Translations under genes and position numbers: made by a program
Source: an uncultured archaeon
GTDB taxonomy: Archaea; Asgardarchaeota; Lokiarchaeia; Sigyniarchaeales; SOKP01
Direction of reading: 5' to 3'
Assembly: GCA_964525635.1 (NCBI GenBank)
Contig: CAZGJX010000076.1
Span: forward strand, 1-21,759
DNA length: 21,759 nt
The notes under the pieces: generated by a model
Told to the model about the DNA's origin: nothing
What the model saw: the letters and a program-made list of their open reading frames with translations, nothing else
The model's database searches: none
Shown: in pieces, positions 171-21,659 of the stretch
Numbering within the stretch: the first letter of the stretch is position 1
Layout of the letters: each line of letters starts with the position of its first letter

Positions 171-1323
171 TAGCGCATTAAATTTATAAGCTTTTTTTGT
201 GTCATTTTTTTTATATCACACACGTATTACATCCTTACAAAAAGCTCGTTCACGCAGTTATATTCATGAAAAAGCTTTCTATCACGAGAAAAACGCCCGA
301 TCATGACGAATTAGTCGAGCTCTACAAGGTCGAGAAGAACTATCGCCTGAAAGAACGATATCATGCCCTTGTCTTGATGCATGAATTGAAAAGCTGCTAT
401 AAGGTTGCAAAAATAATGAAACGCTCGGACGTGACAATCCAATCTTGGGTAAAATCGTTTAACACGGGAGGTTTACCAATGCTTGCTCCAAAGGTCTCTC
501 CAGGACGACCATCGAGATTATCGGTGGAACAAAAAGAAGAATTAAAAAAAGACGTGTTAACGCACCCTCGAGAATTAGGCTACGATTTCAGCAACTGGGA
601 AGGTAAGCACGTTTCGAAACACGTCAAGAACAAGTTTGGCATTCTTTTAAAAGTGCGGCAATGTCAATATCTCCTTCAAGACCTTGGTTTTACCCTGCAA
701 AGACCGAGATATGCCTTTCCCAAGGCAAGTTGCGATGATCAAGAACGATTCGTCCAAGAGTTCAAAAAAAGCTCTACAATCTCGACCCAAACGATTTAAT
801 CCTTTTTCTTGACGAGGCAAGCATCCAATTTGCTTCGACCATCACGCGAATGTGGTCGCTCAAGGGGCAGCAACCAAAAATATATACTCATGGCAGTCGC
901 AAGCGTCAGTCGCTCATTAGTGCCGTCGATCCAATAGGAGGCAACTTGTACGTGGCCTTGACGGACGGCTTAAAAACGGAACAATTTCAGCATTTCTTAG
1001 AAGACCTTCTTGCAAGGTATCCGCATTCTAAAAAACTTGTCATCGTCTTGGATAATGCCAGGGTTCATCACGCCAAGCGGTTAACACCTTTTTTAGAGTG
1101 CAATGAATATCGACTTGAATTATTGTATTTACCACCTTATTCTCCTGACCTCAATCCAATGGAATGGTGTTGGAAGTTCTTGCGTAAAGAAGTCACTTAT
1201 AACACTTTTTTTGTTGATTTCAAGTGCCTCAAGCGCGAGATCGTGAAATTCGTGCTAAAACATAAACGATCATCTTCTGAAATTCAATCTCGATGCAATT
1301 ATACTAAACTATATAATGCGTTA
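171..1323 (+). mobile_element. IS630-family insertion sequence (~1.15 kb)
   Basis: Imperfect terminal inverted repeats TAGCGCATTA (171-180) and TAATGCGTTA (1314-1323), flanked by TA at 169-170 and 1324-1325 (IS630/Tc1-type target duplication). Encodes HTH plus DDE transposase and is visibly more GC-rich than its flanks. Confidence 0.9.
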
Positions 1324-1326
1324 TAA
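266..1326 (+). CDS. IS630-family transposase, two ORFs joined by a -1 frameshift at the A7 run (764-770)
   Basis: ORF1 (likely ATG 266, MKKLSIT) has the winged-HTH region with GRPSRLS and LGFTLQRPR. The -1 frame from the A7 run reads KLYNLDPNDLILFLDEASIQF into ORF 850-1326, supplying FLDEA, VLDNARVHH and LPPYSPDLNPME catalytic motifs. Confidence 0.9.
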
Positions 1327-5291: not shown

Positions 5292-6749
5292 ATGGAACAT
5301 AAAAAAGATATGAAAAAAAAATTAACTTCACAAGGAGGTGCTCCTGTATCAGATAATCAAAATTCATTATCTGCAGGTGAACGGGGACCCTTATTAATGC
5401 AAGATGTGCATTTATTTGAGAAAATGGCACATTTCAATAGAGAAAGAATACCAGAAAGGGTAGTTCACGCTAAAGGTGCTGGAGCATATGGTACTTTTAC
5501 AGTAACTCATGATATCACAAAATATACTAAAGCAAAAATATTTTCAGAAATTGGTAAAAAAACCAAACTTGTAGTTCGATTTTCAACTGTAGCAGGTGAA
5601 AGAGGTTCTGCAGATACAGTTAGAGATGTTCGAGGTTTCGCTATTAAGTTTTATACAGAAGAAGGTAATTGGGATTTAGTAGGAAATAATACACCCGTAT
5701 TTTTTATAAGAGATCCATTAAAATTTAGTGATTTTATTCATACACAAAAACGCATGCCACAAACAAATCTTAGATCTCAAATAATGTGGTGGGATTTCTG
5801 GTCACTTGTTCCAGAAGCTTTACACCAAGTCACAATTTTATTCTCTGATCGTGGTATACCTAGAGGATTTCCACATATGAATGGATATGGTAGTCATACT
5901 TATAGTTTTCTTAATGCAAATGATGAGCGTTTCTGGGTAAAATTTCATTTCAAAACTTTACAAGGTATAAAAAATTTCATGCAAGCTGAGGCAGATGAAC
6001 TTGCTGGTAAAGATCCAGACTGGGCAACGCGAGATCTTTTTGAGAGTATTGAAAGAGGTGATTATCCAAAGTGGGAATTATCTATACAAATCATGCCAGA
6101 GAAAGAAGCTGAATCATACAGATGGAATCCATTTGATTTAACCAAAGTTTGGCCCCATGGAGATTATCCTCTTATAAAAGTAGGGATAATGGAACTTAAT
6201 AAAAATCCTGAAAATTATTTTGCTGAAGTGGAACAGGCAGCTTTTGATCCATCTAATAGAATTCCAGGTATTTCTTTTTCACCAGATAAAATGTTACAAG
6301 CAAGGACTTTTTCTTATGCCGATGCACATAGATATAGACTAGGAGTTAATTACCAAAGCTTACCTGTTAATAAACCAAAAACAGGTAATGTTCACAACTA
6401 CCACCGGGATGGATCAATGAGATTTGATGGAAATAGTGGCCCTGCAGTAAATTATGAACCAAATAGTTTTGGCGGTCCTACAGAAGATCCTGCTTTTAAA
6501 GAACCTCCCTTAAAAATCTCAGGAGATGCTGATAGTTATGATCAACCCACAACGGACGATGATTTTGTCCAACCAGGCAATCTCTATAGATTATTACCCT
6601 CTGATGAACAAGATCGTCTTATTGAGAATCTTGTTAATAGTTTAATAACCATTCCCAAAAACATTCAGGAGCGAATGGTAAACCATTTCTTAAAAGCAGA
6701 TAAGACATGGGGAGAGAGAGTAGCAAAGAAATTAGATGTAAATATTTAA
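5292..6749 (+). CDS. katA: Monofunctional small-subunit haem catalase
   Basis: Distal His motif [35 protein letters not shown], and proximal Tyr motif [14 protein letters not shown]; 485 aa. Alternative start at 5310. Confidence 0.97.
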
Positions 6750-9222: not shown

Positions 9223-11358
9223 ATGAGTGAAAATAAATATGAATTTAAAGCAGAAATTAAAAAATTGCTAGATATTCTTAGTAAATCTCTTTATCAACAT
9301 AAAGAAGTATTTTTAAGAGAGTTAATAAGTAATTCGGTTGATGCACTTAAGAAAGTTCATTTTATATCTCTAACAGACAAAGATATTCAAGATTTTAATG
9401 AAGAATTGAAAATTGAAATTATTACTGATTCAATTAACAACACTATTACTGTTAGAGATACAGGAATTGGTATGAATAAAGATGAATTAATTAGCAACTT
9501 AGGAACAATTGCAGGAAGTGGTTCTCAAAAGTTCTTGGAGCAATTAAATCAATCTCAACAAATAGATTCAAAAAAGCTTGATTTGGATGTTATTGGTCAA
9601 TTTGGAATTGGATTCTATTCGATTTTCATGGTTGCAGGTAAAGTAAATGTTATTTCTAGATCCTATAAAAAAGAAGAAGAAGCTTATCAATGGGAATCTG
9701 ATGGAACAGGAGAATTCACAATAACTAAAAATGATAAACAAAAACGTGGAACAGATGTGATATTATATATAAATGATGAGGATAAAGAATACTTGGATAA
9801 GTTTAAAGTTGAATCTATAATTAAGAAATATTCAAATTATGTATCCTTTCCAATTTATGTTTCTGAAATAAAAAAAGAAGAGAAAAAGGAAGAGAAAAAG
9901 GAAAAGAAAAAGGAAGAGAAAAAGGAAGAGAAAAAGGAAAAGAAAAAGGAAGAGAAAAAGGAAGAGAAAAAGGATGAAAAAGAAGCAGAAGAAGAGATAG
10001 AACCTAAACCTGTGAATGAATTAAATCCTTTATGGAAACGAGATAAAAATGAGATAAAGGATGATGATTATAAAAATTTCTATCATTTTATTTCTAATAG
10101 ATATGATGAATATACTCATATGATTAATTATAAAGTTGATGGAAGCGTACAGTTTCACACTATTCTCTTTATACCAGAATCAGATCCTCTCACGTTTTTA
10201 AGACCAGATGATGAATATGGATTATCTCTTTATTCTAAAAGTGTTATGATTATGAAAAATTGTAGTGAACTTATTCCAAAATGGATGAGATTCATTAAAG
10301 GTGTTGTAAATTCAGATGATATACCATTAAATATCAGTAGAGAAACGATACAAACAAATCGAGTAATGATGAAGATTGAAAAATTGTTGATTAAAAGAAT
10401 CCTTCGAGAGTTTGAAGAAATTGGAGAAAAGGACCTTGATAAATTTAAGAAGATATGGAGCAATTTTGGTATATATTTTAAGGAGGGAATGATTTCAGAT
10501 CCCTTTAGAGCAGATAAGCTCTTGAATTATCTTAGATTTAAAACCTCTAAAACCACTGATGATGAATATAGAAGCTTGGAAGATTATATAAAAGATTTTC
10601 AAGAGGATCAAAATGAGATCTACTATCTAGTAGGAGAAAATATTAGTACGATGAGACAATCTCCACACTTAGGTTATTATAAGGAAAATAACTTAGAAGT
10701 TATTTTATTTGATGAACCAATTGATAATTTTTTAATGATGAATATCCATGAGTATAAAAAATCTGTTGGAGAAGGCGATTCTGCCGAAATAATAACTCAT
10801 AAATTTTCACCTGTAGATGTAACTGAGCCTGTTAAAGATAAGGAGAAAGACAAAGAAGATGAAAAAGAAAAAAAAGAAAAATCAGATATAAAAATTCCTG
10901 AGAATATTAAAAAATTTTTGGAACATGTAAAGTCAATATTAGGAGAAAAAATATTAGATACAAAAATCTCTGATAGGCTTTATGATAATCCTTGTCGACT
11001 GGCTAATCCTACAGGAGGAATGACTTCAAGTATGCAAAGAGCTATGAGATATTGGACGAAGACGGAGTCAGGAAAAGAATTTCAAGCACCCCGTAAAATA
11101 TTAGAATTTAATCAAGACCATCCATTAATTAATGGACTTATAGAACTTTTTACCTCAAATCCTGAAGATAGTAAAATAAAACCAGTTATTAACCAATTGT
11201 TTGAAAATTGTCTCTTAGCAGAAGGAGATCTCCCCAATCCATCATTAATGGTACCTCGAATTAATCAATTAATTGAGATGTTGATTACTGATAAAATAGA
11301 ATTTAGTGAATCAAAAGATAATTCAGATGATACTAAAAAAGAGATTAAAGAGAGTTAG
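9223..11358 (+). CDS. htpG: Molecular chaperone HtpG (Hsp90)
   Basis: GHKL motifs FLRELISNSVDA, DTGIGM, NLGTIAGSG, IGQFGIGFYS, and middle-domain DIPLNISRETIQ. Confidence 0.97.
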   Translation: MSENKYEFKAEIKKLLDILSKSLYQHKEVFLRELISNSVDALKKVHFISLTDKDIQDFNEELKIEIITDSINNTITVRDTGIGMNKDELISNLGTIAGSGSQKFLEQLNQSQQIDSKKLDLDVIGQFGIGFYSIFMVAGKVNVISRSYKKEEEAYQWESDGTGEFTITKNDKQKRGTDVILYINDEDKEYLDKFKVESIIKKYSNYVSFPIYVSEIKKEEKKEEKKEKKKEEKKEEKKEKKKEEKKEEKKDEKEAEEEIEPKPVNELNPLWKRDKNEIKDDDYKNFYHFISNRYDEYTHMINYKVDGSVQFHTILFIPESDPLTFLRPDDEYGLSLYSKSVMIMKNCSELIPKWMRFIKGVVNSDDIPLNISRETIQTNRVMMKIEKLLIKRILREFEEIGEKDLDKFKKIWSNFGIYFKEGMISDPFRADKLLNYLRFKTSKTTDDEYRSLEDYIKDFQEDQNEIYYLVGENISTMRQSPHLGYYKENNLEVILFDEPIDNFLMMNIHEYKKSVGEGDSAEIITHKFSPVDVTEPVKDKEKDKEDEKEKKEKSDIKIPENIKKFLEHVKSILGEKILDTKISDRLYDNPCRLANPTGGMTSSMQRAMRYWTKTESGKEFQAPRKILEFNQDHPLINGLIELFTSNPEDSKIKPVINQLFENCLLAEGDLPNPSLMVPRINQLIEMLITDKIEFSESKDNSDDTKKEIKES
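9877..9972 (+). repeat. In-frame tandem repeat of 8 x 12 bp (GAAGAGAAAAAG / GAAAAGAAAAAG) within htpG
   Basis: Unit order A-A-B-A-A-B-A-A (36-bp higher-order period), purine-only on the + strand, encoding EEKK/EKKK. Confidence 0.95.
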
Positions 11359-11542: not shown

Positions 11543-12718
11543 TTAAAAACTAATTCCAGCCTGAGCGGACATTAACAGAAGTTCCGTCATTGTACCATTA
11601 TAATCATTTTCTATTTTGAAATAATTGTTTTTTCGAGTAAAAGGAATACTATAAATAAATTTATGGTTTTCAGTAGCAAATGGAACTTTTTCAACAAATT
11701 CCTTCATTAAAGGATGAAATTCAACTGGAATATTCTCTTTGGTCGGACATACCATACCGAAACATATACGTTCTATTACTTCAGATTCCCAGTTAAAAGT
11801 AAAATATATAGTCCTAGCGTCACAACATTTTTCTAATACTTCAGATGAATTTATTTCAAAGTTTAAATTTTCGAGGATATTTTTGTACAATTCTAGGCTT
11901 GATGTTTTTGGTTCTTTAACCATAAAGTAGATGTTCATAGATTTATGTAAAAAGTCTAATGCGATTAGAGAAAATTTGGTTAATCCAAATTTCTTAAAAA
12001 ATTTTGTATAATTTACAATACTCTTAGGTATATTTGACATAGAATATAAATTTTTGATTGATGTTGGAGCGATTAGAGACCATATTTTAGCTAATCCTTT
12101 TCTTACATCTAAATCTACCCCATAGCCTAGCACATTAAATTTCTCTTTGATTTCGGATAACATTTTATGCAAAGGGTGCCCGTTTAGATTGATTAAATCA
12201 TTATTTATTGCAATGACATAAGGATCTGGATTATGTGGGTTCATAAGTTCCACATATCGTACAGAAATATCTCTTAAATCTTTATGAAGGGTGGTTGTTC
12301 TAATCGAGAGCGATGAACCTGTGAAAAAAGTTTTGTAAGCGTTAATTACCTTCCAAATTTTTTTCTCATTACATTTTACTCCTGTGAAATTACTGATTTT
12401 TTTAAGATCTGAGACTAAGATATCCAAGTCTATATTGTGTTGGAAGCCCCCTTTGACCAATACTAAGTATTTCTCATAATCTACACCCAATTTTTTCAAA
12501 TCATCTATCATAGTCGGTTGAAACGCAGGCGGAGTGACTTCAAGCAGAGCAACAATTAAGTCAACTTCTTTAATTTGTATTCCCCCCCTTTCAGTACATC
12601 TTTTAATTGTTTTATCATAAAGCGCACTTGATATAATTGGTCTAACAGATTCAGGCATATTTAGAACTACATTATTGTATAAACTTTCAACTTCTGGGTT
12701 CCATTCCAATTTTATCAT
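11543..12718 (-). CDS. ABBA-type aromatic prenyltransferase (NphB/CloQ-like) with N-terminal DUF2621/PCP_red-like module, copy 2
   Basis: SIRTTT, DPY..A, GHP, YGVDLDV..GLAKIW, LDF..KS.NIYF, IYFTFNWES..IERICF and YFKIENDY match PT-barrel motifs of the NphB/CloQ family. Start overlaps the upstream stop (ATGA). Confidence 0.82.
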   Translation of the reverse strand: MIKLEWNPEVESLYNNVVLNMPESVRPIISSALYDKTIKRCTERGGIQIKEVDLIVALLEVTPPAFQPTMIDDLKKLGVDYEKYLVLVKGGFQHNIDLDILVSDLKKISNFTGVKCNEKKIWKVINAYKTFFTGSSLSIRTTTLHKDLRDISVRYVELMNPHNPDPYVIAINNDLINLNGHPLHKMLSEIKEKFNVLGYGVDLDVRKGLAKIWSLIAPTSIKNLYSMSNIPKSIVNYTKFFKKFGLTKFSLIALDFLHKSMNIYFMVKEPKTSSLELYKNILENLNFEINSSEVLEKCCDARTIYFTFNWESEVIERICFGMVCPTKENIPVEFHPLMKEFVEKVPFATENHKFIYSIPFTRKNNYFKIENDYNGTMTELLLMSAQAGISF

Positions 12719-14115
12719 CTCTTTTTATAATTTATTATTTTTCCATCTACATGTTTATGGTCGTTTTCATACCAACAGTATGGAAATGAACCTAAGATAT
12801 CACCTGTAAGTGCTTCAGTAAGAACTCTACAACCTCCACCACATAATTCAAGATGAGAACAATCTGCACATTTCCCGTGACGCTTTCGATCTCGGATGTC
12901 TTTATAGATCTGGGAATTTAATACATCTATAAAATCGTCAGTTAAAGCATTTCCGAGGGTCGTTGCTGTAGGATACCCGGTGGGATATATAGTCCCATCT
13001 ACTTCAATACCCATCATTGCTTTACAAGCTTGGCACCCAACACCCCAATCAATGGTGGCCAATTCCTCATCATTTTTTGGTACTTCCATAAAAGGTGTCA
13101 TTTCATAAATCTCAAACACAGGAATATTGCCCGCTTTTCCATTTCTGATCGCATTAATAGCTCGATTGTACTTGAATTCGTATAATCTCTTATACTGTTC
13201 CATATTAAGGCCAATTTCAGACCAGTATTCATCCGCTCGGCTACCCTTTTGTTTAACTACAGGTCTTAGAAAAGGAGCAGCACCCCATTTTTCTGCTAAA
13301 GCTTTCATTTCTTCTAATTCATCAATATTTTGTCTCATAATAGTCATGGAAGCACATACAAATAAGCCATACTTATGACAGGTTTTTATTGCTTTTTCCG
13401 CATAGGATAATGAATTTGGAAATCCACGTATTTTATCGTTCTTTTTTGGATCAGCACTATCAAAACTAACAAATACATGACTCATCTCGTAATCTTTGCA
13501 CATTTTCGCAAATTCTTCTGTAAATTTAACTCCATTGGTTATTATCGCATGATTATAATCTTTTTCGCAACAATATTTCATAATTTCTCCAATATCTTTA
13601 CGTAGAGTAGGCTCCCCTCCAAACCATATATAAGTTCCATGTCTCCCCTGCTTTTGTAGACTTGTTTCAAGATTTTCAATAATTTGGCACCATTTCTTTA
13701 CTGAAAGTTCGTCTCGAGGTTTGCGATCTGTTGCACAATGAATACAGTTCATATTGCATTTATCGGTAAGATACATAGCGAAATGTATCACACCAGGACG
13801 GAAGCCCTCAGCAAACTTTTCCCAAGAAACATTTAATCGGTCTCGATATTTTTTAATATTGATATATCGTTCCATATCCACTCCAAGAGATTCTAACTCC
13901 TCGACGATTTTCGATTTAAATGCTTCAGGAACAACATCAAAAGTCCCTAATATAAAATCCGATAAATTCACAATCGAACTTTGTCGGTCAATGCATCGTT
14001 TTTCAACTGCTTTAATTGTTGTTGGTTTTATTATTGAATGAAGGTTTTCTGGGAATTTTTCTAAAAGTTTTTGAAAGGTGTCTTCCGCTTCTTGATTCCA
14101 TTCTTTTTTTCTCAT
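12715..14115 (-). CDS. Radical SAM/SPASM protein with N-terminal DUF2621/PCP_red-like module, copy 2
   Basis: CNMNCIHC (CxxxCxxC), FGGEPTLR, ITNG, VSFDS; SPASM GCQAC...CADC...CGGGCR...PYC. Confidence 0.92.
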   Translation of the reverse strand: MRKKEWNQEAEDTFQKLLEKFPENLHSIIKPTTIKAVEKRCIDRQSSIVNLSDFILGTFDVVPEAFKSKIVEELESLGVDMERYINIKKYRDRLNVSWEKFAEGFRPGVIHFAMYLTDKCNMNCIHCATDRKPRDELSVKKWCQIIENLETSLQKQGRHGTYIWFGGEPTLRKDIGEIMKYCCEKDYNHAIITNGVKFTEEFAKMCKDYEMSHVFVSFDSADPKKNDKIRGFPNSLSYAEKAIKTCHKYGLFVCASMTIMRQNIDELEEMKALAEKWGAAPFLRPVVKQKGSRADEYWSEIGLNMEQYKRLYEFKYNRAINAIRNGKAGNIPVFEIYEMTPFMEVPKNDEELATIDWGVGCQACKAMMGIEVDGTIYPTGYPTATTLGNALTDDFIDVLNSQIYKDIRDRKRHGKCADCSHLELCGGGCRVLTEALTGDILGSFPYCWYENDHKHVDGKIINYKKR

Positions 14116-14187
14116 TTTATTTCTAACTCATTTTTTTTACTTTATTGTTTATTTTTTTACCTTTTTAGGTCGAAAGTATTTCTTCCG

Positions 14188-14227
14188 TCTTGCCCTTATT
14201 CTTGCGTGAAGGACAGGAAAGACAAGA
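14188..14227 (-). other. Putative intergenic stem-loop in the operon transcript
   Basis: On the transcribed strand UCCUGUCCUU (or the adjacent UCUUGUCUUU) pairs with AAGGGCAAGA around a loop containing C-GCAA-G. GC-richer patch in an AT-rich spacer. Confidence 0.4.
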
Positions 14228-14254
14228 AAAAAATTTTAATATTTGTAGATTTTT

Positions 14255-16261
14255 TTAATTTCCCATTGCATTTTTGTGAGCTTTTGCATATAGTGTGATT
14301 AGGGGTATACACTCCATCAGTTTTTCTGTATCTCCCTCCACAGCATATTTTCCACTCATAGTTGCTTTAATTGGATCCTCTTCTCCTAATAATATCTTTT
14401 GAATTGTGTCAAAATCTGTTTTATGAATCATCTTTGGAGCGTCCAAATCTGAACATTTACCCATCCCCCATTCTATTTTGGAATCAATAAAAGCTTGCCA
14501 GAAACTCATCTTTGAATTGTTTGTAACTTGATATTCAATTACTAAAGGAGCAATAGAAGTAATCAATGTTTGTAATTCCGATAGATCACTAAGTGAATTC
14601 ATAAATTGAGAGATGTAATCTTTCCAATCACCTTCATCTTTCAGATCTACTGAATCTTGAGTAGTGCTATTAGCAGTCTCTTCCAATATTTCTGAACTAT
14701 AAGGTTGTGCTTTTATAGTCTCAACTTCATCTTCACTCAAAAATTTTTTCAAATCAATTTCATTCTCAATCATTAGATCAAGTAAGTCATGTTGAAATTG
14801 TGGTGGCACTAATTTAATTAGAATCGCAATGACAAGATCCTTCGTTACTTCATCCATCTTTTTTCGCTCAGCAGTTCTTTCTGAGATATTTCTAATAGCT
14901 TTAGAAGCAGATTTTTGCATATTTTCAGGAATTAGTTCTAATGTCTCTTCAAAAAATTTTAGGGCTTCGGGTGTCCATGAAATTCCATAGATAGTCCCCT
15001 CTTTTGTGTCTTCTATTGGGCTGGTGATTGTTCTTTCATCTTTCGGTAAAAATTGTTGACCTGCGTTAAAATAATTATACAAATAAGCAGAATATTTTTT
15101 ATATGTTTCCGTTTTCTCTTTAGAAGGTAAGAAATAGGCCTTATTTACCCATTCATAGCAATACTTACATTTAACACCGCAATTTTCTATACATCTTGAA
15201 CCTTGAAATGGAAGATTTTCAATAAAACCATCCAATTTATCACATCTTAATTGTGCATCAAAATCCGGAATCCCAATTTGTAAATCATCATCACTTTGAT
15301 AACCTCCTATTTCTTCTTGAAGGGATGTATATTCAGGAAATTGACTTCCAGCTAGTTCCAAGGGATTTGTTTGAAAATTATATCCATTTAACATATTCCC
15401 AAGATTAGAATCATAGAATCTTTTTGCATATGCTTTTAAAGCATGAATTATCCAAGGTGTATGATATCTCCTTCCAGATATTTTATAATAGTTAATTCCT
15501 GTTTTTAGATAATAATCGATATCAGAAGGTTGAATCCATTTCGCCATCATAATCTGCTCTGGATTGAACGCTTTGGCACTTTGACATGCAATAACTGACC
15601 AATCATTATAGTATCCTTTTAATACATGATGCTCTTGACTTGCATGTGAAGTTTCAGAATAATGGAAAAATCTAAAAGGACACTCATTTACACAAGCATC
15701 ATTAAGGAGGATTTCCAAATCACAATCTAGTTCCTCTCTGAATTTTTTAAGCAATGGAAAATTTCGATTAACCATTACTGACAAGTTTATTATTCCTTCT
15801 TTCCCAATAATTTCTTGCCAATCATAACCCATAGTAAGTGTAGTTACTTCAGCAATTAAGGAAACTTTTACCTTGATATTAGGATGATAATACCGTACAA
15901 ATCTCGCTAAATAAGGATCTACAATCGTGATATATTCAACGCCCAGATCATCTAACCAATCCAATTCTTTAAGAGCTTTGTCTTGCGCTTTTGAATTAAA
16001 CTTGCTGAAGCCAAGACACTTTCCATTCCATAGCCATGTAAATCCCACACCTATATCATGGACTCTATTAATATAATCTTCCATCTCAGAGTAATCTTTT
16101 CTTGGCATTAAGAAAAAGGGACGCCCAGAGCCTGTAAAGCCAAGATCTCTTGTACCATAAAAATCATTTACAACTTTGAGTAAATCATGATTTTTTTCTA
16201 TCTCATCTAATAAATCTTTCTTCCAATTACATGGAACTGATATACGTAATGAATTAACCAT
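14255..16261 (-). CDS. U32-family Fe-S protein fused to an internal DUF2621/PCP_red-like module and a C-terminal SCP2 domain
   Basis: U32-like core (FYG...GSGR, LDWLDDLGV..ITIVDPYL, NRNF, LLNDACVNECPF..H, YKISGR) and Cys cluster CIENCGVKCKYC. Helical module at aa ~429-507. SCP2-type tail TDFDTIQKILLGEEDPIKATMSGKYAVEGD. Confidence 0.8.
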   Translation of the reverse strand: MVNSLRISVPCNWKKDLLDEIEKNHDLLKVVNDFYGTRDLGFTGSGRPFFLMPRKDYSEMEDYINRVHDIGVGFTWLWNGKCLGFSKFNSKAQDKALKELDWLDDLGVEYITIVDPYLARFVRYYHPNIKVKVSLIAEVTTLTMGYDWQEIIGKEGIINLSVMVNRNFPLLKKFREELDCDLEILLNDACVNECPFRFFHYSETSHASQEHHVLKGYYNDWSVIACQSAKAFNPEQIMMAKWIQPSDIDYYLKTGINYYKISGRRYHTPWIIHALKAYAKRFYDSNLGNMLNGYNFQTNPLELAGSQFPEYTSLQEEIGGYQSDDDLQIGIPDFDAQLRCDKLDGFIENLPFQGSRCIENCGVKCKYCYEWVNKAYFLPSKEKTETYKKYSAYLYNYFNAGQQFLPKDERTITSPIEDTKEGTIYGISWTPEALKFFEETLELIPENMQKSASKAIRNISERTAERKKMDEVTKDLVIAILIKLVPPQFQHDLLDLMIENEIDLKKFLSEDEVETIKAQPYSSEILEETANSTTQDSVDLKDEGDWKDYISQFMNSLSDLSELQTLITSIAPLVIEYQVTNNSKMSFWQAFIDSKIEWGMGKCSDLDAPKMIHKTDFDTIQKILLGEEDPIKATMSGKYAVEGDTEKLMECIPLITLYAKAHKNAMGN

Positions 16262-17405
16262 TTATTGCACCTCGTTCAATTTTTTGTAATTTTTTTTCTA
16301 TTACCGATAGTACTTCCTTTTTCACTGATACATTCGCTTCATTACATTTTTTTATATAATCCTTGCAAAATTCATTCATTTCATCCTCCTCTGGATAAAA
16401 ATGTTCATAAGGAAAATTTTCAACAAATTCCTTAATTACATAATCTGGAAGTGAAATCATTGACTCTTCGATTGTCTTTTCTAAGCCATAATTTCCATAT
16501 GGATTTGGTATATTAAGGAATTTACAGAAATCACCTTCAAACGATTTGTTCATATAAGAATTAAGAATATCTAATGTCTTTTCTTTAGAAAACCCATATG
16601 TAAAAAGTAGAAAAGTATCATATCCCATATTCTCATATTTTTCAATGTTAAATGGAGATATCCATCCTGCTTTTAGAATCCGTTCTGGTTCTTCTAAACG
16701 CTTTTTCCAACATTCTAATAAAGGAAAATCAAATGCATTTTCAACATCAGATATCTCAATCTGATTAGAAGATACAGGAGAATCCATAGTTCTATGACTT
16801 TGCATATTATGGTGATCAAACCAATAAATGCATCCCCAATTACATCCCAAATTAAGGGGCAATATGTAGCTTGTATCGCTAATTTTTTGATTTTCTTCTT
16901 GAATTTTTGTGAGATTATTCATTACATAGGAATATCTTAAGATATCCGGGTGTAAGATAATCGATTGAGATCCAATGTTGAAATAGAGTTTAGCACGATT
17001 TGTTGATGTTACAAATTGGGCATAGGATAAGAAAATGTTTAATGACGGATAATTTTTCTTTATAAATGCTAAGATATTAGGCGAAGAAACTAGTACATTT
17101 TCAAAGCCTAATTCAATCATATCCTCAAGAAATTTTCGATATGCCCTAAAATGATCAACATAAGATTCTAGATTTCCTTGGCATGAAGAATCAATGCCAA
17201 AAATAGGAGTTAATCCCTTATCTTGCACAAATTTAGTATAGTTCTCAAATTCTTCACGATCTGGTAACTTTTCCGGCAAAAAAATTGACCCATTTCCTAT
17301 GGGATTATGTGGCGTATGTAATATAATGTGCGTCACAGGAAGTTCCTTTTTTGTAATAGCGGAAATTAATTCCCTATTATAATCTCCTTCAATTATAAAT
17401 TTCAT
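16254..17405 (-). CDS. Divergent U32-family protein
   Basis: Colinear with the neighbouring U32 core (IGNGS, VLVSSPNIL, LNLGCNWGC-x5-H-x5-H, AGWISP) but lacks KISGR. Stop overlaps the next start by 8 bp. Confidence 0.72.
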   Translation of the reverse strand: MKFIIEGDYNRELISAITKKELPVTHIILHTPHNPIGNGSIFLPEKLPDREEFENYTKFVQDKGLTPIFGIDSSCQGNLESYVDHFRAYRKFLEDMIELGFENVLVSSPNILAFIKKNYPSLNIFLSYAQFVTSTNRAKLYFNIGSQSIILHPDILRYSYVMNNLTKIQEENQKISDTSYILPLNLGCNWGCIYWFDHHNMQSHRTMDSPVSSNQIEISDVENAFDFPLLECWKKRLEEPERILKAGWISPFNIEKYENMGYDTFLLFTYGFSKEKTLDILNSYMNKSFEGDFCKFLNIPNPYGNYGLEKTIEESMISLPDYVIKEFVENFPYEHFYPEEDEMNEFCKDYIKKCNEANVSVKKEVLSVIEKKLQKIERGAING

Positions 17406-17498
17406 TATTTAAATCATCTTTGTGGTTTTTTTTTTTCAATTATTTAAACACCTCATTTTTTTTTTATTTTTTAGTTAATTTTTAAAAAAAAGTTCATT

Positions 17499-18674
17499 TT
17501 ATAGATCTAATCCTCCTTCTGCCCCCATTTTTAAAATTTCAATCATCGTTCCTGTATAATCGTTTTCTACTTTGAACCAGTTTTCGTTGGGAGAAAATGT
17601 TAAACTATAAATAAAAGTCCGCTTGTCAGTAGCGAAAGGAGCTTTCTCGACAAAAGTTTTCATTAATGGATGAAAATGTATAGGGACTTGATCTTGTCCT
17701 TCAGGACAGAGAACTCCAAAGCAAACTCGCTCTATTTTATCAGATTCCCAATTAAAAGTGTAATAGATAGTAGTGGCCTGACGACACCGTTCCATTACTT
17801 CAGGAGGACCCACTTTATAATTAAGATCTTTAAGCATAGCTTCACACTTTTCTCGTGTCACCTTTCCCGGTTTTACAATGAAATATATATTCACCGTCTT
17901 ATGACAAAAATCGAGAGCAAATAAGCAAAAATCAGATAAACCATGTTTTTTAAAATAATCTTTCAGCGTTAATATGCTCTTCGGAAACGTTTCCATTGAA
18001 TAGACGCCTTCGACAGGACAAGGTGTGATAAAATTCCAGAGTTTTGTTAATCCTACTCTAACATCCAAATCTACGCCATGACCCATAATTTCAAACTTAT
18101 CGTAGATCTCATAGAACATTTTATGGAGAGGGTGTCCATTTTTTTCAAGTAAACCCTCATTAATAGCTGTAATATAGGGATCAGGATCATGTTTTACCAT
18201 CAACTCAACATATCTTATTGAAACATCTCTTTCTTCTTTTGGTTTAGTAGTAGTTCTAATTGAGATTGAAGAACCGGAGAAAAAAGTTTTATAGGCATTT
18301 AGAACCTTCCAGATTGCTTCTTCATTACATTTTACTCCAGTGATGTCTCCAATTTTATTTAAATCCTCAACGGTTTGATTTAGATCTACATTATTTTTAA
18401 ATCCACTTTTAACATAAACCATGTATTTTAAATAATCAATACCTAATGATTTTATATCTTCAATCATTCCAGGCTGTATCGCTGGGGGAGTTACTTCAAA
18501 TATAGCTACTACTAGATCTCTCTCTGCAATAGTTTTTCCTTTTCGATCCTCGCATTTTTTTTCTGCTGTGTTAAACAGAACTGGTCCAATAATAGGTCTA
18601 ACATTAACGGGCATTTTCAGAACCATATTTTCATAAAGTTGTCTAACTTCTGGTTGCCATTCCATTTTTTTCAC
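17499..18674 (-). CDS. ABBA-type aromatic prenyltransferase (NphB/CloQ-like) with N-terminal DUF2621/PCP_red-like module, copy 1
   Basis: SIRTTTKP..RDVSIRY, DPY..A..EGL, GHP, GVDLDV..GLTKLW, LDF..KTVNIYF, IYYTFNWES..IERVCF, WFKVENDY. Same 391-aa length as its paralogue. GTG start (or ATG at 18665). Confidence 0.83.
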   Translation of the reverse strand: MKKMEWQPEVRQLYENMVLKMPVNVRPIIGPVLFNTAEKKCEDRKGKTIAERDLVVAIFEVTPPAIQPGMIEDIKSLGIDYLKYMVYVKSGFKNNVDLNQTVEDLNKIGDITGVKCNEEAIWKVLNAYKTFFSGSSISIRTTTKPKEERDVSIRYVELMVKHDPDPYITAINEGLLEKNGHPLHKMFYEIYDKFEIMGHGVDLDVRVGLTKLWNFITPCPVEGVYSMETFPKSILTLKDYFKKHGLSDFCLFALDFCHKTVNIYFIVKPGKVTREKCEAMLKDLNYKVGPPEVMERCRQATTIYYTFNWESDKIERVCFGVLCPEGQDQVPIHFHPLMKTFVEKAPFATDKRTFIYSLTFSPNENWFKVENDYTGTMIEILKMGAEGGLDL

Positions 18675-18690
18675 TTTTATAATTTTATTT

Positions 18691-20106
18691 TTATTTTTTT
18701 GATTGAATTAATTTTGTTTCCTTCTCTGGAGATAGATAGTCTTCATAGTCATGATCATTCTCATGCCAACAATATGGAAACGATGCAAAAAAGTCACCCG
18801 TTTCACATTCGGCATGCACCCTACATCCTCCACCACATAATTCAAGATGATGACAAGTAGCACATTTTCCTGTTCGCTTTCTATCTCTGATATCTTTAAA
18901 CAGTTGAGAATTCATTATTTCTTCAAAATTCTGTTCTAAGACATTTCCAAGGATTAGTTCAGAAGGATAATCACATGGAAAAAAATCTCCATTGACATCA
19001 ACACCTGAGACCAAACGACATGCTTGACATCCAACGCCCCATTCTAAAGCTGTAAGTTCTTCATCATTTATAGGATATTCCATAAACGGTACCATATCAA
19101 ATGTATTAGCTCTATTTAGAGTAGTAGCTTTTCCTTCTCTTATGGCTTCAACCACGTTTTTATACTTAAATTCATAGAATTCTTTATATTGTTCAGGAGT
19201 TAATCCAATTTCATCCCAATTATTTTTAGCATTTCTTTGCTTAATTACGGCTCTAAAAAATGGGATGGCGCCCCAACTTTCGATTTTTTCTTTTAGATCC
19301 TCAAGTTCATCAATGTTTATTCTCATTATTGTTGGTGTGCATATGACAAAATGGCCATACTTTACAGCTAATTTAACTGCTTTCTCTGCAGTCTCATATG
19401 CATTTGGCACACCTCTTATCTTTGCAGCTCTCTCAGGGCGAGTACTATCAATACTAATAAAAATATGGCTCATCTTGACCTCTGCTAATAATTTTGCAAG
19501 ATCATCGGTAAACATTATACCATTTGTCGCTATTGCTTGAAGATATTCTTTTTTATAACAATAATCGATTAAATCCTTAAGATCTTTTCGAAGAGTAGGC
19601 TCTCCTCCAAACCATATATAGCAACCTTTTCTTCCTTGCTTATTCAATGTTTGCTCGATATTTTCCACAATCTGAATCCAATGCTCTGTAGAGAGTTCTG
19701 GACGCGCATCATGAACCTCAGCAGCACAATGCATACATTTTTGATTACAGCGATCAGTAAGATACATTGTTATATGATAAACATTAGGTAAAAATGCTTC
19801 CCCTATTTCATCCCAAGATTTATAATACTTTTGTCTTATCTCTGAAAGTTGGACATAACGTTTAGCATTAATTCCTAATTTATGTAATGTACTCACTAGA
19901 GTAGCTTTTAAAGACTCTGGTGTAATTTTTACTAATGCTGTTATCAAATCGTCTTTGCTTACATAACCAGAATTCCTTAATCTCGCATTCTCCTCTGCAT
20001 TATCATGTAAGAGAGGCTTTACTGCGGAGCGGAATCCTTCGGGAACTTGATTTGTAAGAGTTACAAATAGTTCATTTACTTCACTTTTCCATTCCAAATT
20101 TTTCAT
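18691..20106 (-). CDS. Radical SAM/SPASM protein with N-terminal DUF2621/PCP_red-like module, copy 1
   Basis: CNQKCMHC, FGGEPTLR, ATNG, ISIDS; SPASM GCQAC...GDFFPC...CATC...CGGGCR...PYC. Confidence 0.93.
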   Translation of the reverse strand: MKNLEWKSEVNELFVTLTNQVPEGFRSAVKPLLHDNAEENARLRNSGYVSKDDLITALVKITPESLKATLVSTLHKLGINAKRYVQLSEIRQKYYKSWDEIGEAFLPNVYHITMYLTDRCNQKCMHCAAEVHDARPELSTEHWIQIVENIEQTLNKQGRKGCYIWFGGEPTLRKDLKDLIDYCYKKEYLQAIATNGIMFTDDLAKLLAEVKMSHIFISIDSTRPERAAKIRGVPNAYETAEKAVKLAVKYGHFVICTPTIMRINIDELEDLKEKIESWGAIPFFRAVIKQRNAKNNWDEIGLTPEQYKEFYEFKYKNVVEAIREGKATTLNRANTFDMVPFMEYPINDEELTALEWGVGCQACRLVSGVDVNGDFFPCDYPSELILGNVLEQNFEEIMNSQLFKDIRDRKRTGKCATCHHLELCGGGCRVHAECETGDFFASFPYCWHENDHDYEDYLSPEKETKLIQSKK

Positions 20107-20196: not shown

Positions 20197-20943
20197 TTAA
20201 CAAATTAGAACCCCTATTTTGCTTATATATATAGAAGAATTTTTAAAAAGAGTATTTAGGAAATTTTGTAACCATTCTAAATTTCTAGAATAATTAGTTA
20301 AAAAAGAGAAGAAGCAAGAACATAGAGGAAAGAAATATGGCAAAAAATAATAATGTTTTTTATAAAAAATAAGAAAAAAATAGAAAATTTCATTTTGAAA
20401 GAGTTTATACCGGAATTTTTCCTCACCTATAGTTCCCTTAAATTCCTCATAATTTATGCTATTAAAGTTTTCATTATTCTTTTGGTTTAAATGATGAAAT
20501 TCAAATAAATACCCAATATTATCATTTAAATCAAAATTATTAGAATTATTATCAAGATTTTTAAAATTATCATAAGAGCAAGGGAAATAAATATCATATT
20601 CATATAAATATCCTTCAATATAACTTTTTTTTATATATTGATAAAATAATCTTTCAAAATAACTAGCTAGATTAATAAGAATAAAAAAATCAATCACTTG
20701 ACCAAGGCTTAAATAAATTTTAGCATTTTTTTCTGTAATAAACCAAAAAATATTGATATCTGAAAACCATGGAACAAAAATTGAACTATTGGATGAAATA
20801 TAATTTTTTAATAAACTATCAAAATCTGTAATATTTTGTATGAAGAGATATAAAAATGAGATTGGTAGAGATAATGTAAGGAATACCAAAATTATAATAA
20901 CTAAAATCTTTAAATTTTTGGATTGTTTTTTATATTTGTCCAT
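20197..20943 (-). CDS. Hypothetical membrane protein
   Basis: 248-codon ORF in very AT-rich DNA with an N-terminal TM helix and an aromatic-rich C-terminal segment; no recognisable motif. Confidence 0.5.
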   Translation of the reverse strand: MDKYKKQSKNLKILVIIILVFLTLSLPISFLYLFIQNITDFDSLLKNYISSNSSIFVPWFSDINIFWFITEKNAKIYLSLGQVIDFFILINLASYFERLFYQYIKKSYIEGYLYEYDIYFPCSYDNFKNLDNNSNNFDLNDNIGYLFEFHHLNQKNNENFNSINYEEFKGTIGEEKFRYKLFQNEIFYFFLIFYKKHYYFLPYFFPLCSCFFSFLTNYSRNLEWLQNFLNTLFKNSSIYISKIGVLIC

Positions 20944-21125: not shown

Positions 21126-21659
21126 TTAAGATTTAACTTTATGTTCTTTAAATTTCATATAGATAGAAGTTTTAGAAATATTATATTTATAATCTCTAGG
21201 AAATATTTTTATAATTTCTCTTATAAGATTATCAATTTTTTGTTTGGTTATCTCGGGGTGGGTTTGATTTAAATCAGGATCTAATTTGTGTAAATATACA
21301 GAAACTTCTATTTTAGAATCATTGTTGATCAATAAATTAACAATTTTCTGTAAAAAATCAAGAGATGGGGCATATTTTTTTTTATCTTGTATATCAATTA
21401 CAAATAAAATTTTTTTCGTATTAACCAAATAACTATAGAAATTCTTTAAATATTCATTTATGTATTCTTTTTGACCACCAAACTCCCAAACAATATATTC
21501 TTGATCAATTGCTTGATACTTAATAAAATCAATATGAATAGTAGGTTTTATTTCAGAAAAAGAGGATAAATTACGGAATCCTTGAAAATATTTTAAAATT
21601 GAGGTCTTTCCACTATTACTGAGTCCCAATAGTAACATTCTAGAATAAGGTTTAGACAT
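21126..21659 (-). CDS. Ras-superfamily small GTPase (Arf/Rag-like, Asgard type)
   Basis: G1 GLSNSGKTS, G2 KPT, G3 WEFGGQ, ILFVID, G4 HKLD, G5 KTSI. Confidence 0.9.
   Translation of the reverse strand: MSKPYSRMLLLGLSNSGKTSILKYFQGFRNLSSFSEIKPTIHIDFIKYQAIDQEYIVWEFGGQKEYINEYLKNFYSYLVNTKKILFVIDIQDKKKYAPSLDFLQKIVNLLINNDSKIEVSVYLHKLDPDLNQTHPEITKQKIDNLIREIIKIFPRDYKYNISKTSIYMKFKEHKVKS

Follow-up and report, generated by a model that had tools for sequence, protein, structure and literature searches.

How does an archaeon come to carry soluble aromatic prenyltransferases of the ABBA family, and what might it make with them? Enzymes of this kind have so far been characterised in bacterial and fungal secondary metabolism, and full-text searches of the literature yielded no paper that, by its title or abstract, concerns ABBA prenyltransferases of archaea, nor one on ABBA enzymes or an operon of the present type in Asgard archaea. 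The question is raised by two genes, here named PT_A and PT_B (PT, prenyltransferase), which are located on contig CAZGJX010000076.1 (C76) of a metagenome-assembled genome (MAG; assembly GCA_964525635.1) comprising 4.45 Mb in 245 contigs with a GC content of 26.8%, and rated 100% complete and 2.98% contaminated. 'The window' denotes the whole of this contig, 21,759 bp in length. We find that PT_A and PT_B are soluble members of the ABBA/PT-barrel family having the PT-barrel fold, that their active sites are conserved, and that they belong to an operon shared by many Asgard loci. The prenyltransferases, fused to an adaptor module that neighbouring oxygen-independent enzymes share, hint at an undescribed pathway whose product would be a greasy prenylated aromatic compound.

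Family and fold of PT_A and PT_B

Both proteins match the PTase_Orf2 profile (PF11468; cut-off 22 bits) with high significance (PT_A, 186.2 bits, E 1.1e-54; PT_B, 166.1 bits, E 1.5e-48), the match spanning profile positions 3–284 of 287. The open reading frame (ORF) of PT_A comprises 391 residues when read from a GTG codon, but its true start is likely the ATG at 18665, since the identical database protein P0007 has 388 residues. PT_A and PT_B are 56% identical over their full length, and a third PT copy of the same genome is found on contig C15, so that an earlier note on this DNA, made from the sequence alone, was correct in describing two full-length diverged paralogues, while the genome actually holds three PTs.

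The AlphaFold2 model of PT_A, obtained with an alignment of 53 homologues (mean predicted local distance difference test score (pLDDT) 92.8; predicted TM-score 0.87), exhibits five helices at the N terminus and then ten strands that alternate with helices, that is, a PT barrel. A Foldseek search of the Protein Data Bank (PDB) ranks AmbP3 first (5y7c; E 5e-28; target-normalised TM-score 0.94; r.m.s.d. 2.0 Å; 293 columns), followed by FamD1, AmbP1, EpzP, NphB and CloQ, with DMATS-type enzymes far behind. Likewise, the profile of the 53 homologues matches PDB sequences in the order AmbP3 and FamD1 (1e-64), AmbP1 (2.5e-62), EpzP (4e-57), NphB (2e-44) and CloQ (2e-23). Neither PT_A nor PT_B contains the (N/D)DxxD motif of the membrane-embedded UbiA-type prenyltransferases, and neither contains a hydrophobic segment: the Kyte-Doolittle mean over 19 residues reaches at most 1.42 and 1.14, respectively, with no window above 1.6. 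The Pfam match, the comparison with PDB sequences, the model, the fold search and the absence of hydrophobic segments thus all agree with the earlier assignment of these proteins to the soluble ABBA family.

Active-site residues

In EpzP, the diphosphate is bound by R49, K117, N172, Y174, Y220, R232 and K283, as well as, through water, by R62 (PMC3485228). When this site is mapped onto PT_A, by HMMER alignment only (the index of the EpzP chain being the native number + 2), the residues R49/R62/K117/N172/Y174/Y220/R232/K283 correspond to R140/R154/K211/N262/Y264/Y304/R316/K368. Across the 53 homologues K211, Y264 and K368 are invariant, R154, N262 and R316 are 96–98% conserved, R140 is Arg in 41, and position 304 is occupied by either Tyr or Asn; PT_B retains every mapped residue of the site. 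R140 is located at a position that is Arg in Mg-independent enzymes, and the alignment places S152 of PT_A at the Mg2+ ligand of NphB, which we take to be Asp62. On the acceptor side, E370 aligns with A285 of EpzP, stated to be equivalent to the catalytic base Glu281 of CloQ; it is Glu in 51 of the 53 sequences and is part of the invariant strand K368-x-E-x-D372-Y373. The aromatic-pocket residues W213 and F215 are conserved as well, although PT_B has Leu in place of F215, which corresponds to pocket residue F121 of EpzP and is Phe in 50 of the 53 homologues. Judged by these residues, PT_A and PT_B are intact and probably Mg-independent prenyltransferases, and Glu370 would fit a phenolic acceptor.

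Operon and partner proteins

PT_A and PT_B are encoded by genes 2 and 6 of a six-gene operon on the minus strand (11543–20106) having the order rSAM_A, PT_A, U32a, U32b-adaptor-SCP2, rSAM_B, PT_B (Table 1; rSAM, radical S-adenosylmethionine (SAM) protein). Its junctions are either overlaps of 4 bp (PT_B start with rSAM_B stop) and 8 bp (U32b with U32a) or gaps of 16–139 bp.

Table 1. Features of contig C76, with positions counted from the first nucleotide of the window.
Feature	Position	Strand	Assignment and remarks
PT_A	17499..18674	−	Adaptor (aa 1–~92) and ABBA PT barrel (aa ~96–391); Pfam PF11468
PT_B	11543..12718	−	Second adaptor-PT barrel paralogue; Pfam PF11468; 391 aa from ATG
rSAM_A	18691..20106	−	Adaptor and radical SAM/SPASM; Pfam Radical_SAM E 2e-22, SPASM 9e-11
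U32a	16254..17405	−	Diverged U32-family protein; PF01136 22.6 bits (cut-off 22.4)
U32b-adaptor-SCP2	14255..16261	−	Fusion protein; Pfam U32 E 2e-5, SCP2 E 1.3e-4, DUF2621 E 6e-3
rSAM_B	12715..14115	−	Adaptor and radical SAM/SPASM; Pfam Radical_SAM E 4e-25, SPASM 4.5e-7
orf248	20197..20943	−	Conserved membrane protein; gene precedes the operon; hydropathy maximum 2.92; no Pfam match
Small GTPase	21126..21659	−	Gtr1/RagA/Arf-like; Pfam Gtr1_RagA E 2.9e-19, Arf 3.9e-15
IS630-like transposase	197-1326	+	Two ORFs (HTH_33/HTH_32 and DDE_3); contig start
Catalase	5292-6749	+	About 5 kb from the operon
HtpG/Hsp90	9223-11358	+	Full length; Pfam E 8e-114; convergent with PT_B

In rSAM_A the CX3CX2C motif is formed by C120, C124 and C127; the nearest NCBIfam models are NirJ2/AhbD, far under their cut-offs, and the protein is 57–77% identical to bacterial and archaeal rSAM partners of PT genes. 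rSAM_B is 49% identical to rSAM_A and 61–65% identical to the rSAM_B type of other clusters. Upstream, homologues of residues 27–110 of orf248 precede rSAM_A in most related clusters.

The two U32 proteins resemble each other (BLASTP E 5e-14). U32a, the sole operon protein devoid of the adaptor, possesses the invariant cysteines C75, C188, C192, C232 and C347, while the fusion protein consists of a U32 part (aa 1–~420), an adaptor (aa ~428–507) and an SCP2 domain (aa ~563–653), its invariant cysteines including C180, C190, C194, C226 and C357, C361, C365, C368. A chain of similarity links both to the U32 family: the U32-adaptor protein of a related Asgard locus (L025) matches PF01136 with E 1.8e-15 and is ~30% identical to U32b, which in turn is matched by U32a. 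They are not orthologues of UbiU or UbiV, the NCBIfam UbiU model scoring 11.9 bits against a cut-off of 440. The U32 family is Fe-S in nature (PMC6747719), with which the invariant cysteines of U32a and U32b would be consistent. In hydroxylases of UbiU/UbiV type four conserved Cys of each subunit bind a [4Fe-4S] cluster, and prephenate serves there as oxygen donor (PMC10990095). By analogy the U32 pair may use prephenate, too; the genome encodes chorismate synthase and chorismate mutase, and hence prephenate and aromatic precursors are available.

The shared module

The PF11468 match begins only near residue ~98 in both PTs. Their first ~92 residues, as well as those of both rSAMs, align with residues ~428–507 of U32b, and five of the six operon proteins thus carry the same module. 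Among 40 diverse copies of the module, 36 match DUF2621 (PF11084; best E 4e-8) and seven match PCP_red (PF08369; best E 0.021), with the copies of the C76 proteins themselves scoring under the DUF2621 cut-off. When modelled alone (pLDDT 88), the module adopts a five-helix fold with a two-residue β-bridge, for which structural matches were obtained with PCP_red (2kru; TM-score 0.58, Z 5.8), Nostoc asr4154 (2l09; Z 6.5) and AAA-lid domains (Z 7–7.9). Comparison of the module profile with PDB sequences gave nothing significant.

The module is N-terminal in the Loki PTs and C-terminal in those of Helarchaeota, Thermoplasmata and Deferrimicrobium. A C-terminal or directly downstream module is found at 9614–10822 on a Helarchaeota contig of 1.48 Mb (L021, G128:C3), at 10001–11206 in Thermoplasmata (L069), and in Deferrimicrobium (L068), indicating that the module has been shuffled independently. 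Among 1.84 billion representatives searched exhaustively with HMMER, only 210 proved to be ABBA relatives at E ≤ 0.001, and 21 of the ABBA sequences scanned, PT_A and PT_B included, carry the module. In a midpoint-rooted tree of 114 ABBA representatives, all adaptor-bearing PTs of the tree fall within a single 28-member subclade (Shimodaira-Hasegawa-like approximate likelihood-ratio test (SH-aLRT) support 92), and PT_A and PT_B within a 12-member clade (SH-aLRT 100); names sought for 10 of the representatives were obtained only in two distant clades (Streptosporangiaceae and Nocardia). We prefer to read the module as a putative device for docking or recruitment.

Related loci, phylogeny and composition

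Searches with tblastn of the operon proteins against 20 related Asgard loci reveal a canonical order, namely membrane ORF, U32-adaptor, rSAM_A, rSAM_B, B12-radical SAM and PT, followed by either SCP2 or U32a and U32b-SCP2. The same gene set adjoins the PT in 20 Asgard loci, in addition to bacterial and Thermoplasmata loci, and the C76 operon is a compact, rearranged version of this larger Asgard operon. The genome has its own canonical operon as well, on the 50-kb contig C15, which contains the third PT and two extra rSAM-SCP2 fusions. The latter (L024, G000:C15, 6098–9215) are radical SAM/SPASM proteins of 525 and 502 residues with C-terminal SCP2-like regions; the C15 operon also has a B12-binding radical SAM gene, and these three genes are absent from the compact operon on C76. 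Apart from C76, the compact order lacking the B12-rSAM is found only in the MAGs BC1 (G274) and Bin_204 (G275), whose operons stop after rSAM_B and have no PT_B.

The alternation of rSAM and PT genes on C76 might be taken for a duplicated rSAM-PT pair (A-B-C-D-A'-B'). We reject this reading: rSAM_A and rSAM_B are each 61–70% identical to their own orthologues and stand side by side in all canonical clusters. They represent two ancestral types, and the apparent pair therefore results from rearrangement plus duplication of the PT alone. Tandem PT pairs are present in at least four other MAGs (L047:10286 and 11572; L058:231 and 1451; G155:C144:1666–3806; G203:C284:397–2471). PT duplication is thus recurrent, and partly old, since L047 and L058 each combine copies from different PT subclades.

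When one genome per species was scanned, 43 loci were obtained, labelled Promethearchaeota, Hermod-, Hod-, Thor- and Helarchaeota and one Thermoplasmata chromosome, and about 80 PT homologues (~390 residues, 50–70% identity) are named as belonging to Lokiarchaeota/Promethearchaeota or Hodarchaeota MAGs. Genomes with PF11468 number 32 of 400 in the phylum, 28 of 134 in the family and none of three in the genus, with a few more in the same class. Bacterial PT loci are found in Pseudobacteroides, Clostridia, Bacillota, Aminicenantes, Thermoanaerobaculia, Anaerolineae and Deferrimicrobium; where rSAM_A homologues are present (52–62% identity) the PTs adjoin them, and some of these loci have U32-adaptor or SCP2 genes, too. 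In an arbitrarily rooted tree of 48 PT barrels, the Asgard clade having the N-terminal adaptor (35 rows) is monophyletic (SH-aLRT 100) with a long stem (0.66). PT_A groups with its counterparts from G274 and G275 (98), PT_B is the long-branch sister of that group (87), and the C15 copy lies deep in the main clade.

The earlier note had inferred old acquisition and retention from AT-rich, host-like codon use. The genes are indeed AT-rich, but only partly host-like: among the 1,416 long ORFs of the genome, the six operon genes rank at the 92nd–96th percentile of GC content at third codon positions (GC3) and at the 5th–11th percentile of the codon-adaptation index, whereas orf248 and the genes for the GTPase, HtpG and catalase have ordinary composition. 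Enrichment in GC3 is seen as well in the orthologous block of G275 and, in part, in the C15 operon. Age is upheld in the sense that the family appears to be old in Asgard archaea, while simple vertical retention is not: the absence from congeners, the presence in only a minority of the phylum, the occurrence in anaerobic bacteria, the monophyletic, long-stemmed Loki clade and the atypical composition together suggest that the family is inherited patchily or moves laterally.

Proposed function and alternative explanations

From these observations we infer an acceptor class, roles for the partner proteins, the formation of a complex and a type of product as follows. PT_A and PT_B would be catalytically intact, soluble, Mg-independent ABBA aromatic prenyltransferases acting on a phenolic acceptor within an operon for O2-free tailoring, a reading that we consider rather probable. 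A prenyl diphosphate would be bound, without Mg2+, by a ring of basic and Tyr/Asn residues and then ionised, so as to alkylate an electron-rich, probably phenolic, aromatic acceptor, with Glu370 anchoring the phenolic hydroxyl group and deprotonating the sigma complex in the manner of Glu281 in CloQ. The two radical SAM/SPASM enzymes may functionalise either substrate or product, and the diverged U32 Fe-S pair may, by analogy with UbiU/UbiV, hydroxylate without O2, prephenate providing the oxygen. The fused SCP2 domain would hold greasy intermediates, the ~90-residue DUF2621/PCP_red-like module would dock five of the six proteins into one complex, and the second PT could carry out a second prenylation or act on a different acceptor or position.

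Several points weigh against this proposal. The closest solved enzymes, AmbP1, AmbP3 and FamD1, prenylate indole derivatives rather than phenols and have Asp at the position of Glu370. The U32 assignment is marginal for both U32a and U32b (22.6 and 24.4 bits, respectively, with PF01136 requiring 22.4), profile comparison with E. coli UbiU/UbiV is not significant (hhalign E 0.011–0.39 over 17–51 columns), and the four-Cys spacing of the two proteins differs both from the CX6CX15CX3/4C of the U32 family and from the UbiV motif. SPASM radical SAM proteins mostly act on peptides, SkfB and PqqE being the nearest solved relatives here. Finally, the fold matches of the module (Z 5.8–7.9), among which cyclin-box and histone-fold also appear, do not exceed the background for small helical domains, and its docking role is putative.

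The most serious competitor, though an unlikely one, is tailoring of an isoprenoid lipid or glycolipid of the archaeal membrane, with the PT acting on a non-aromatic or head-group substrate and the rSAM and U32 proteins modifying the chains. Lipid-binding SCP2 domains are present in every version of the operon, the rSAMs weakly match the tetraether synthase Tes/GDGT-MAS (E 2e-17 with NCBIfam; 8e-8), and the canonical copy on C15 is followed by genes for a GT2 glycosyltransferase, a hexapeptide transferase and a LuxE-like acyl-protein synthetase. However, conservation from locus to locus does not extend to the glycosyltransferase neighbours, bacteria share the core although they are devoid of archaeal lipids, and the conserved W213 and F215 of the aromatic pocket, together with Glu at the CloQ base position, speak for an aromatic acceptor, as does the fact that all characterised PTase_Orf2 enzymes alkylate such acceptors (PMC3485228, PMC7253389).

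That the operon matures a peptide or protein, akin to a ribosomally synthesised and post-translationally modified peptide (RiPP), appears quite unlikely. In that case a precursor recognised by the module would be crosslinked or oxidised by the SPASM enzymes and prenylated by the PTs on the side chain of a Tyr or Trp. The ABBA superfamily does include peptide prenyltransferases, the rSAMs have their closest solved relatives in the peptide maturases SkfB, PqqE and SuiB, many NCBIfam matches are likewise peptide maturases, and the first description of U32 was as a family of peptidases. Yet no small conserved precursor ORF was seen at the loci, where the only conserved upstream gene encodes a membrane protein of ~240 residues; the module is all-helical and DUF2621/PCP_red-like, not a winged helix of the RiPP recognition element type; an SCP2 domain is unsuited to a peptide substrate; and the Orf2 family, of which the PT is a member, acts on small molecules.

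A respiratory quinone, made by an archaeal O2-independent pathway of ubiquinone or menaquinone type, is improbable. The U32 pair and SCP2 domain do mirror the UbiU/UbiV/UbiT layout, and prenylation combined with hydroxylation (plus methylation by the B12-rSAM in the canonical operon) follows the logic of quinone synthesis. Nevertheless, quinone-interacting subunits of NuoH and NrfD type were not found in this genome despite its completeness, and the absence of the family from three congeners and 368 of the 400 genomes of the phylum hardly befits a core respiratory cofactor; moreover, U32a and U32b are not UbiU or UbiV orthologues, and known quinone pathways employ membrane-embedded UbiA-type enzymes.

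Tailoring of a tetrapyrrole, finally, is very improbable. It would accord with AhbD, AhbC and NirJ being the best NCBIfam models for both rSAMs, with the resemblance of the module to the PCP_red domain of the protochlorophyllide reductase BchB and with the B12-radical SAM genes of the canonical operon, but the rSAM scores of ~130 bits compare with equivalog cut-offs of 500–650, tetrapyrroles are not among the known substrates of ABBA enzymes, and the genome, rated complete, lacks porphobilinogen synthase (ALAD/HemB).

The reading that we prefer is that a phenolic acceptor is prenylated by an operon working without O2. It is then tempting to speculate, albeit more tentatively and with less than even confidence, that an undescribed class of prenylated and hydroxylated phenolic lipid or cofactor is produced, entirely without O2, by Asgard archaea of the Loki type and by scattered anaerobic bacteria, with the help of a complex recruited through the module around an SCP2 carrier, and that the two PTs of the second operon yield a doubly prenylated or otherwise distinct variant. 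What makes the system worth pursuing is a conserved, adaptor-tagged PT family within a strictly anaerobic enzyme set, found in the archaeal lineage closest to eukaryotes as well as in anaerobic bacteria. A prenylated phenolic lipid, if confirmed, would represent a new class of Asgard metabolite and a possible biomarker; it would likewise give U32-type O2-free hydroxylation a second role in biology beyond ubiquinone and RNA, add a new case of pathway assembly through a shared docking domain, and provide Mg-independent prenyltransferases for biocatalysis.

Host genome and remainder of the contig

The host is an Asgard archaeon of the Lokiarchaeia type. No archaeal small-subunit ribosomal RNA was found when the MAG was searched, and the taxonomy is drawn from the named homologous contigs and marker-type genes. 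The idea that C76 is a mis-binned bacterial contig and its archaeal context an artefact can practically be dismissed: even though the PT family also occurs in anaerobic bacteria, the GC3 of the operon is atypical and the contig is short (21.8 kb) and ranks 84th of 100 in tetranucleotide distance, that distance is still under the 90th percentile, Promethearchaeota and other Asgard contigs, up to 1.48 Mb long, carry the nearest homologues (70% identity) as well as ~35 more loci, a Rag/Arf-like GTPase is encoded on C76 itself, flanking genes have typical host composition, and the canonical operon lies on a larger contig of the same genome. The Asgard-labelled loci, the GTPase and the flanking genes make the archaeal context independent of the binning of C76, in agreement with the archaeal origin proposed earlier; neither a bacterial bin nor a structure lacking the PT barrel, either of which would have contradicted the initial proposal, was found.

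Among the 43 loci, the PT-bearing contigs reach 1.48 Mb, 498 kb and 461 kb, and on the last of these, from Promethearchaeota, a gene for an actin-like protein (L025, 6286–7428, minus strand) is located three genes downstream of the canonical operon. The GTPase gene of C76, two genes upstream of the operon, is of the eukaryote-signature type typical of Asgard genomes. Among the sequencing runs found to contain this stretch, all are of salt-marsh DNA and none is of RNA. A blastn search of the MAG returned no second copy of the IS630-like transposase. Full-length HtpG is encoded next to PT_B, and Hsp90 proteins are uncommon in archaea. The rSAM-PT locus of an uncultured bacterium is accompanied by a catalase gene (L072:3719–5158), too, the product being 61% identical and the gene 3.5 kb away; this recurrence may be a coincidence or a hint at a link with oxidative stress.

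Comparison with known systems

The best matches in both sequence and structure, with 27–30% identity, are AmbP1, AmbP3 and FamD1 of cyanobacterial hapalindole/ambiguine biosynthesis (5yk9, 5y4g/5y7c and 5ynt, respectively), which (i) share the ten-stranded barrel with PT_A and (ii) have in common with it a K-x-(D/E)-x-D-Y motif on the last strand. However, they are devoid of the N-terminal adaptor, possess Asp in place of Glu370, and act on indole isonitrile or hapalindole in aerobic cyanobacterial secondary metabolism, with no rSAM/SPASM, U32 or SCP2 neighbours.

EpzP/PpzP, the dihydrophenazine-1-carboxylate prenyltransferases of Streptomyces (4ee6), and CloQ, the 4-hydroxyphenylpyruvate (4-HPP) prenyltransferase (2xlq), have the Mg2+-independent type of diphosphate site, and Glu281 of CloQ occupies the position of Glu370. 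They belong to actinobacterial antibiotic pathways and are accompanied neither by an adaptor nor by anaerobic partner enzymes. The earlier note had linked the archaeal proteins to CloQ and 4-HPP in particular. CloQ combines the Glu281 base with the anchors Arg160 and Arg176 (PMC5371340); PT_A has the Glu, but the position of Arg160, which anchors the 4-HPP carboxylate, corresponds to a gap or to Cys250/Leu251 when placed via the EpzP alignment (PMC3485228, PMC5371340), while that of Arg176 falls into an unalignable loop. With Arg160 lacking a counterpart and CloQ being the most distant solved relative of PT_A, the link to 4-HPP is not specifically supported. The features that are shared with CloQ, i.e. 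the basic residue of Mg-independent enzymes and the catalytic Glu, plausibly fit a phenolic acceptor in general.

NphB/Orf2 from Streptomyces sp. CL190 (1zb6), the founder of PTase_Orf2, is of the same Pfam family and fold as PT_A, but it is Mg2+-dependent, and the position of EpzP R49, which is Arg140 in PT_A, is not basic in NphB (PMC3485228).

The proteobacterial UbiT/UbiU/UbiV system (PMC6747719, PMC10990095) differs from the C76 operon in that SCP2 is here fused to a U32 protein, the Cys spacing is another one and the U32 proteins are not orthologous; likewise, the prenyltransferase of the ubiquinone system is of UbiA type, whereas that of C76 is a soluble ABBA enzyme, encoded in a genome without obvious quinone-using complexes. 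U32a and U32b each possess several invariant cysteines, and what the two systems have in common is the arrangement of two adjacent U32 proteins and an SCP2 domain beside a prenylation step.

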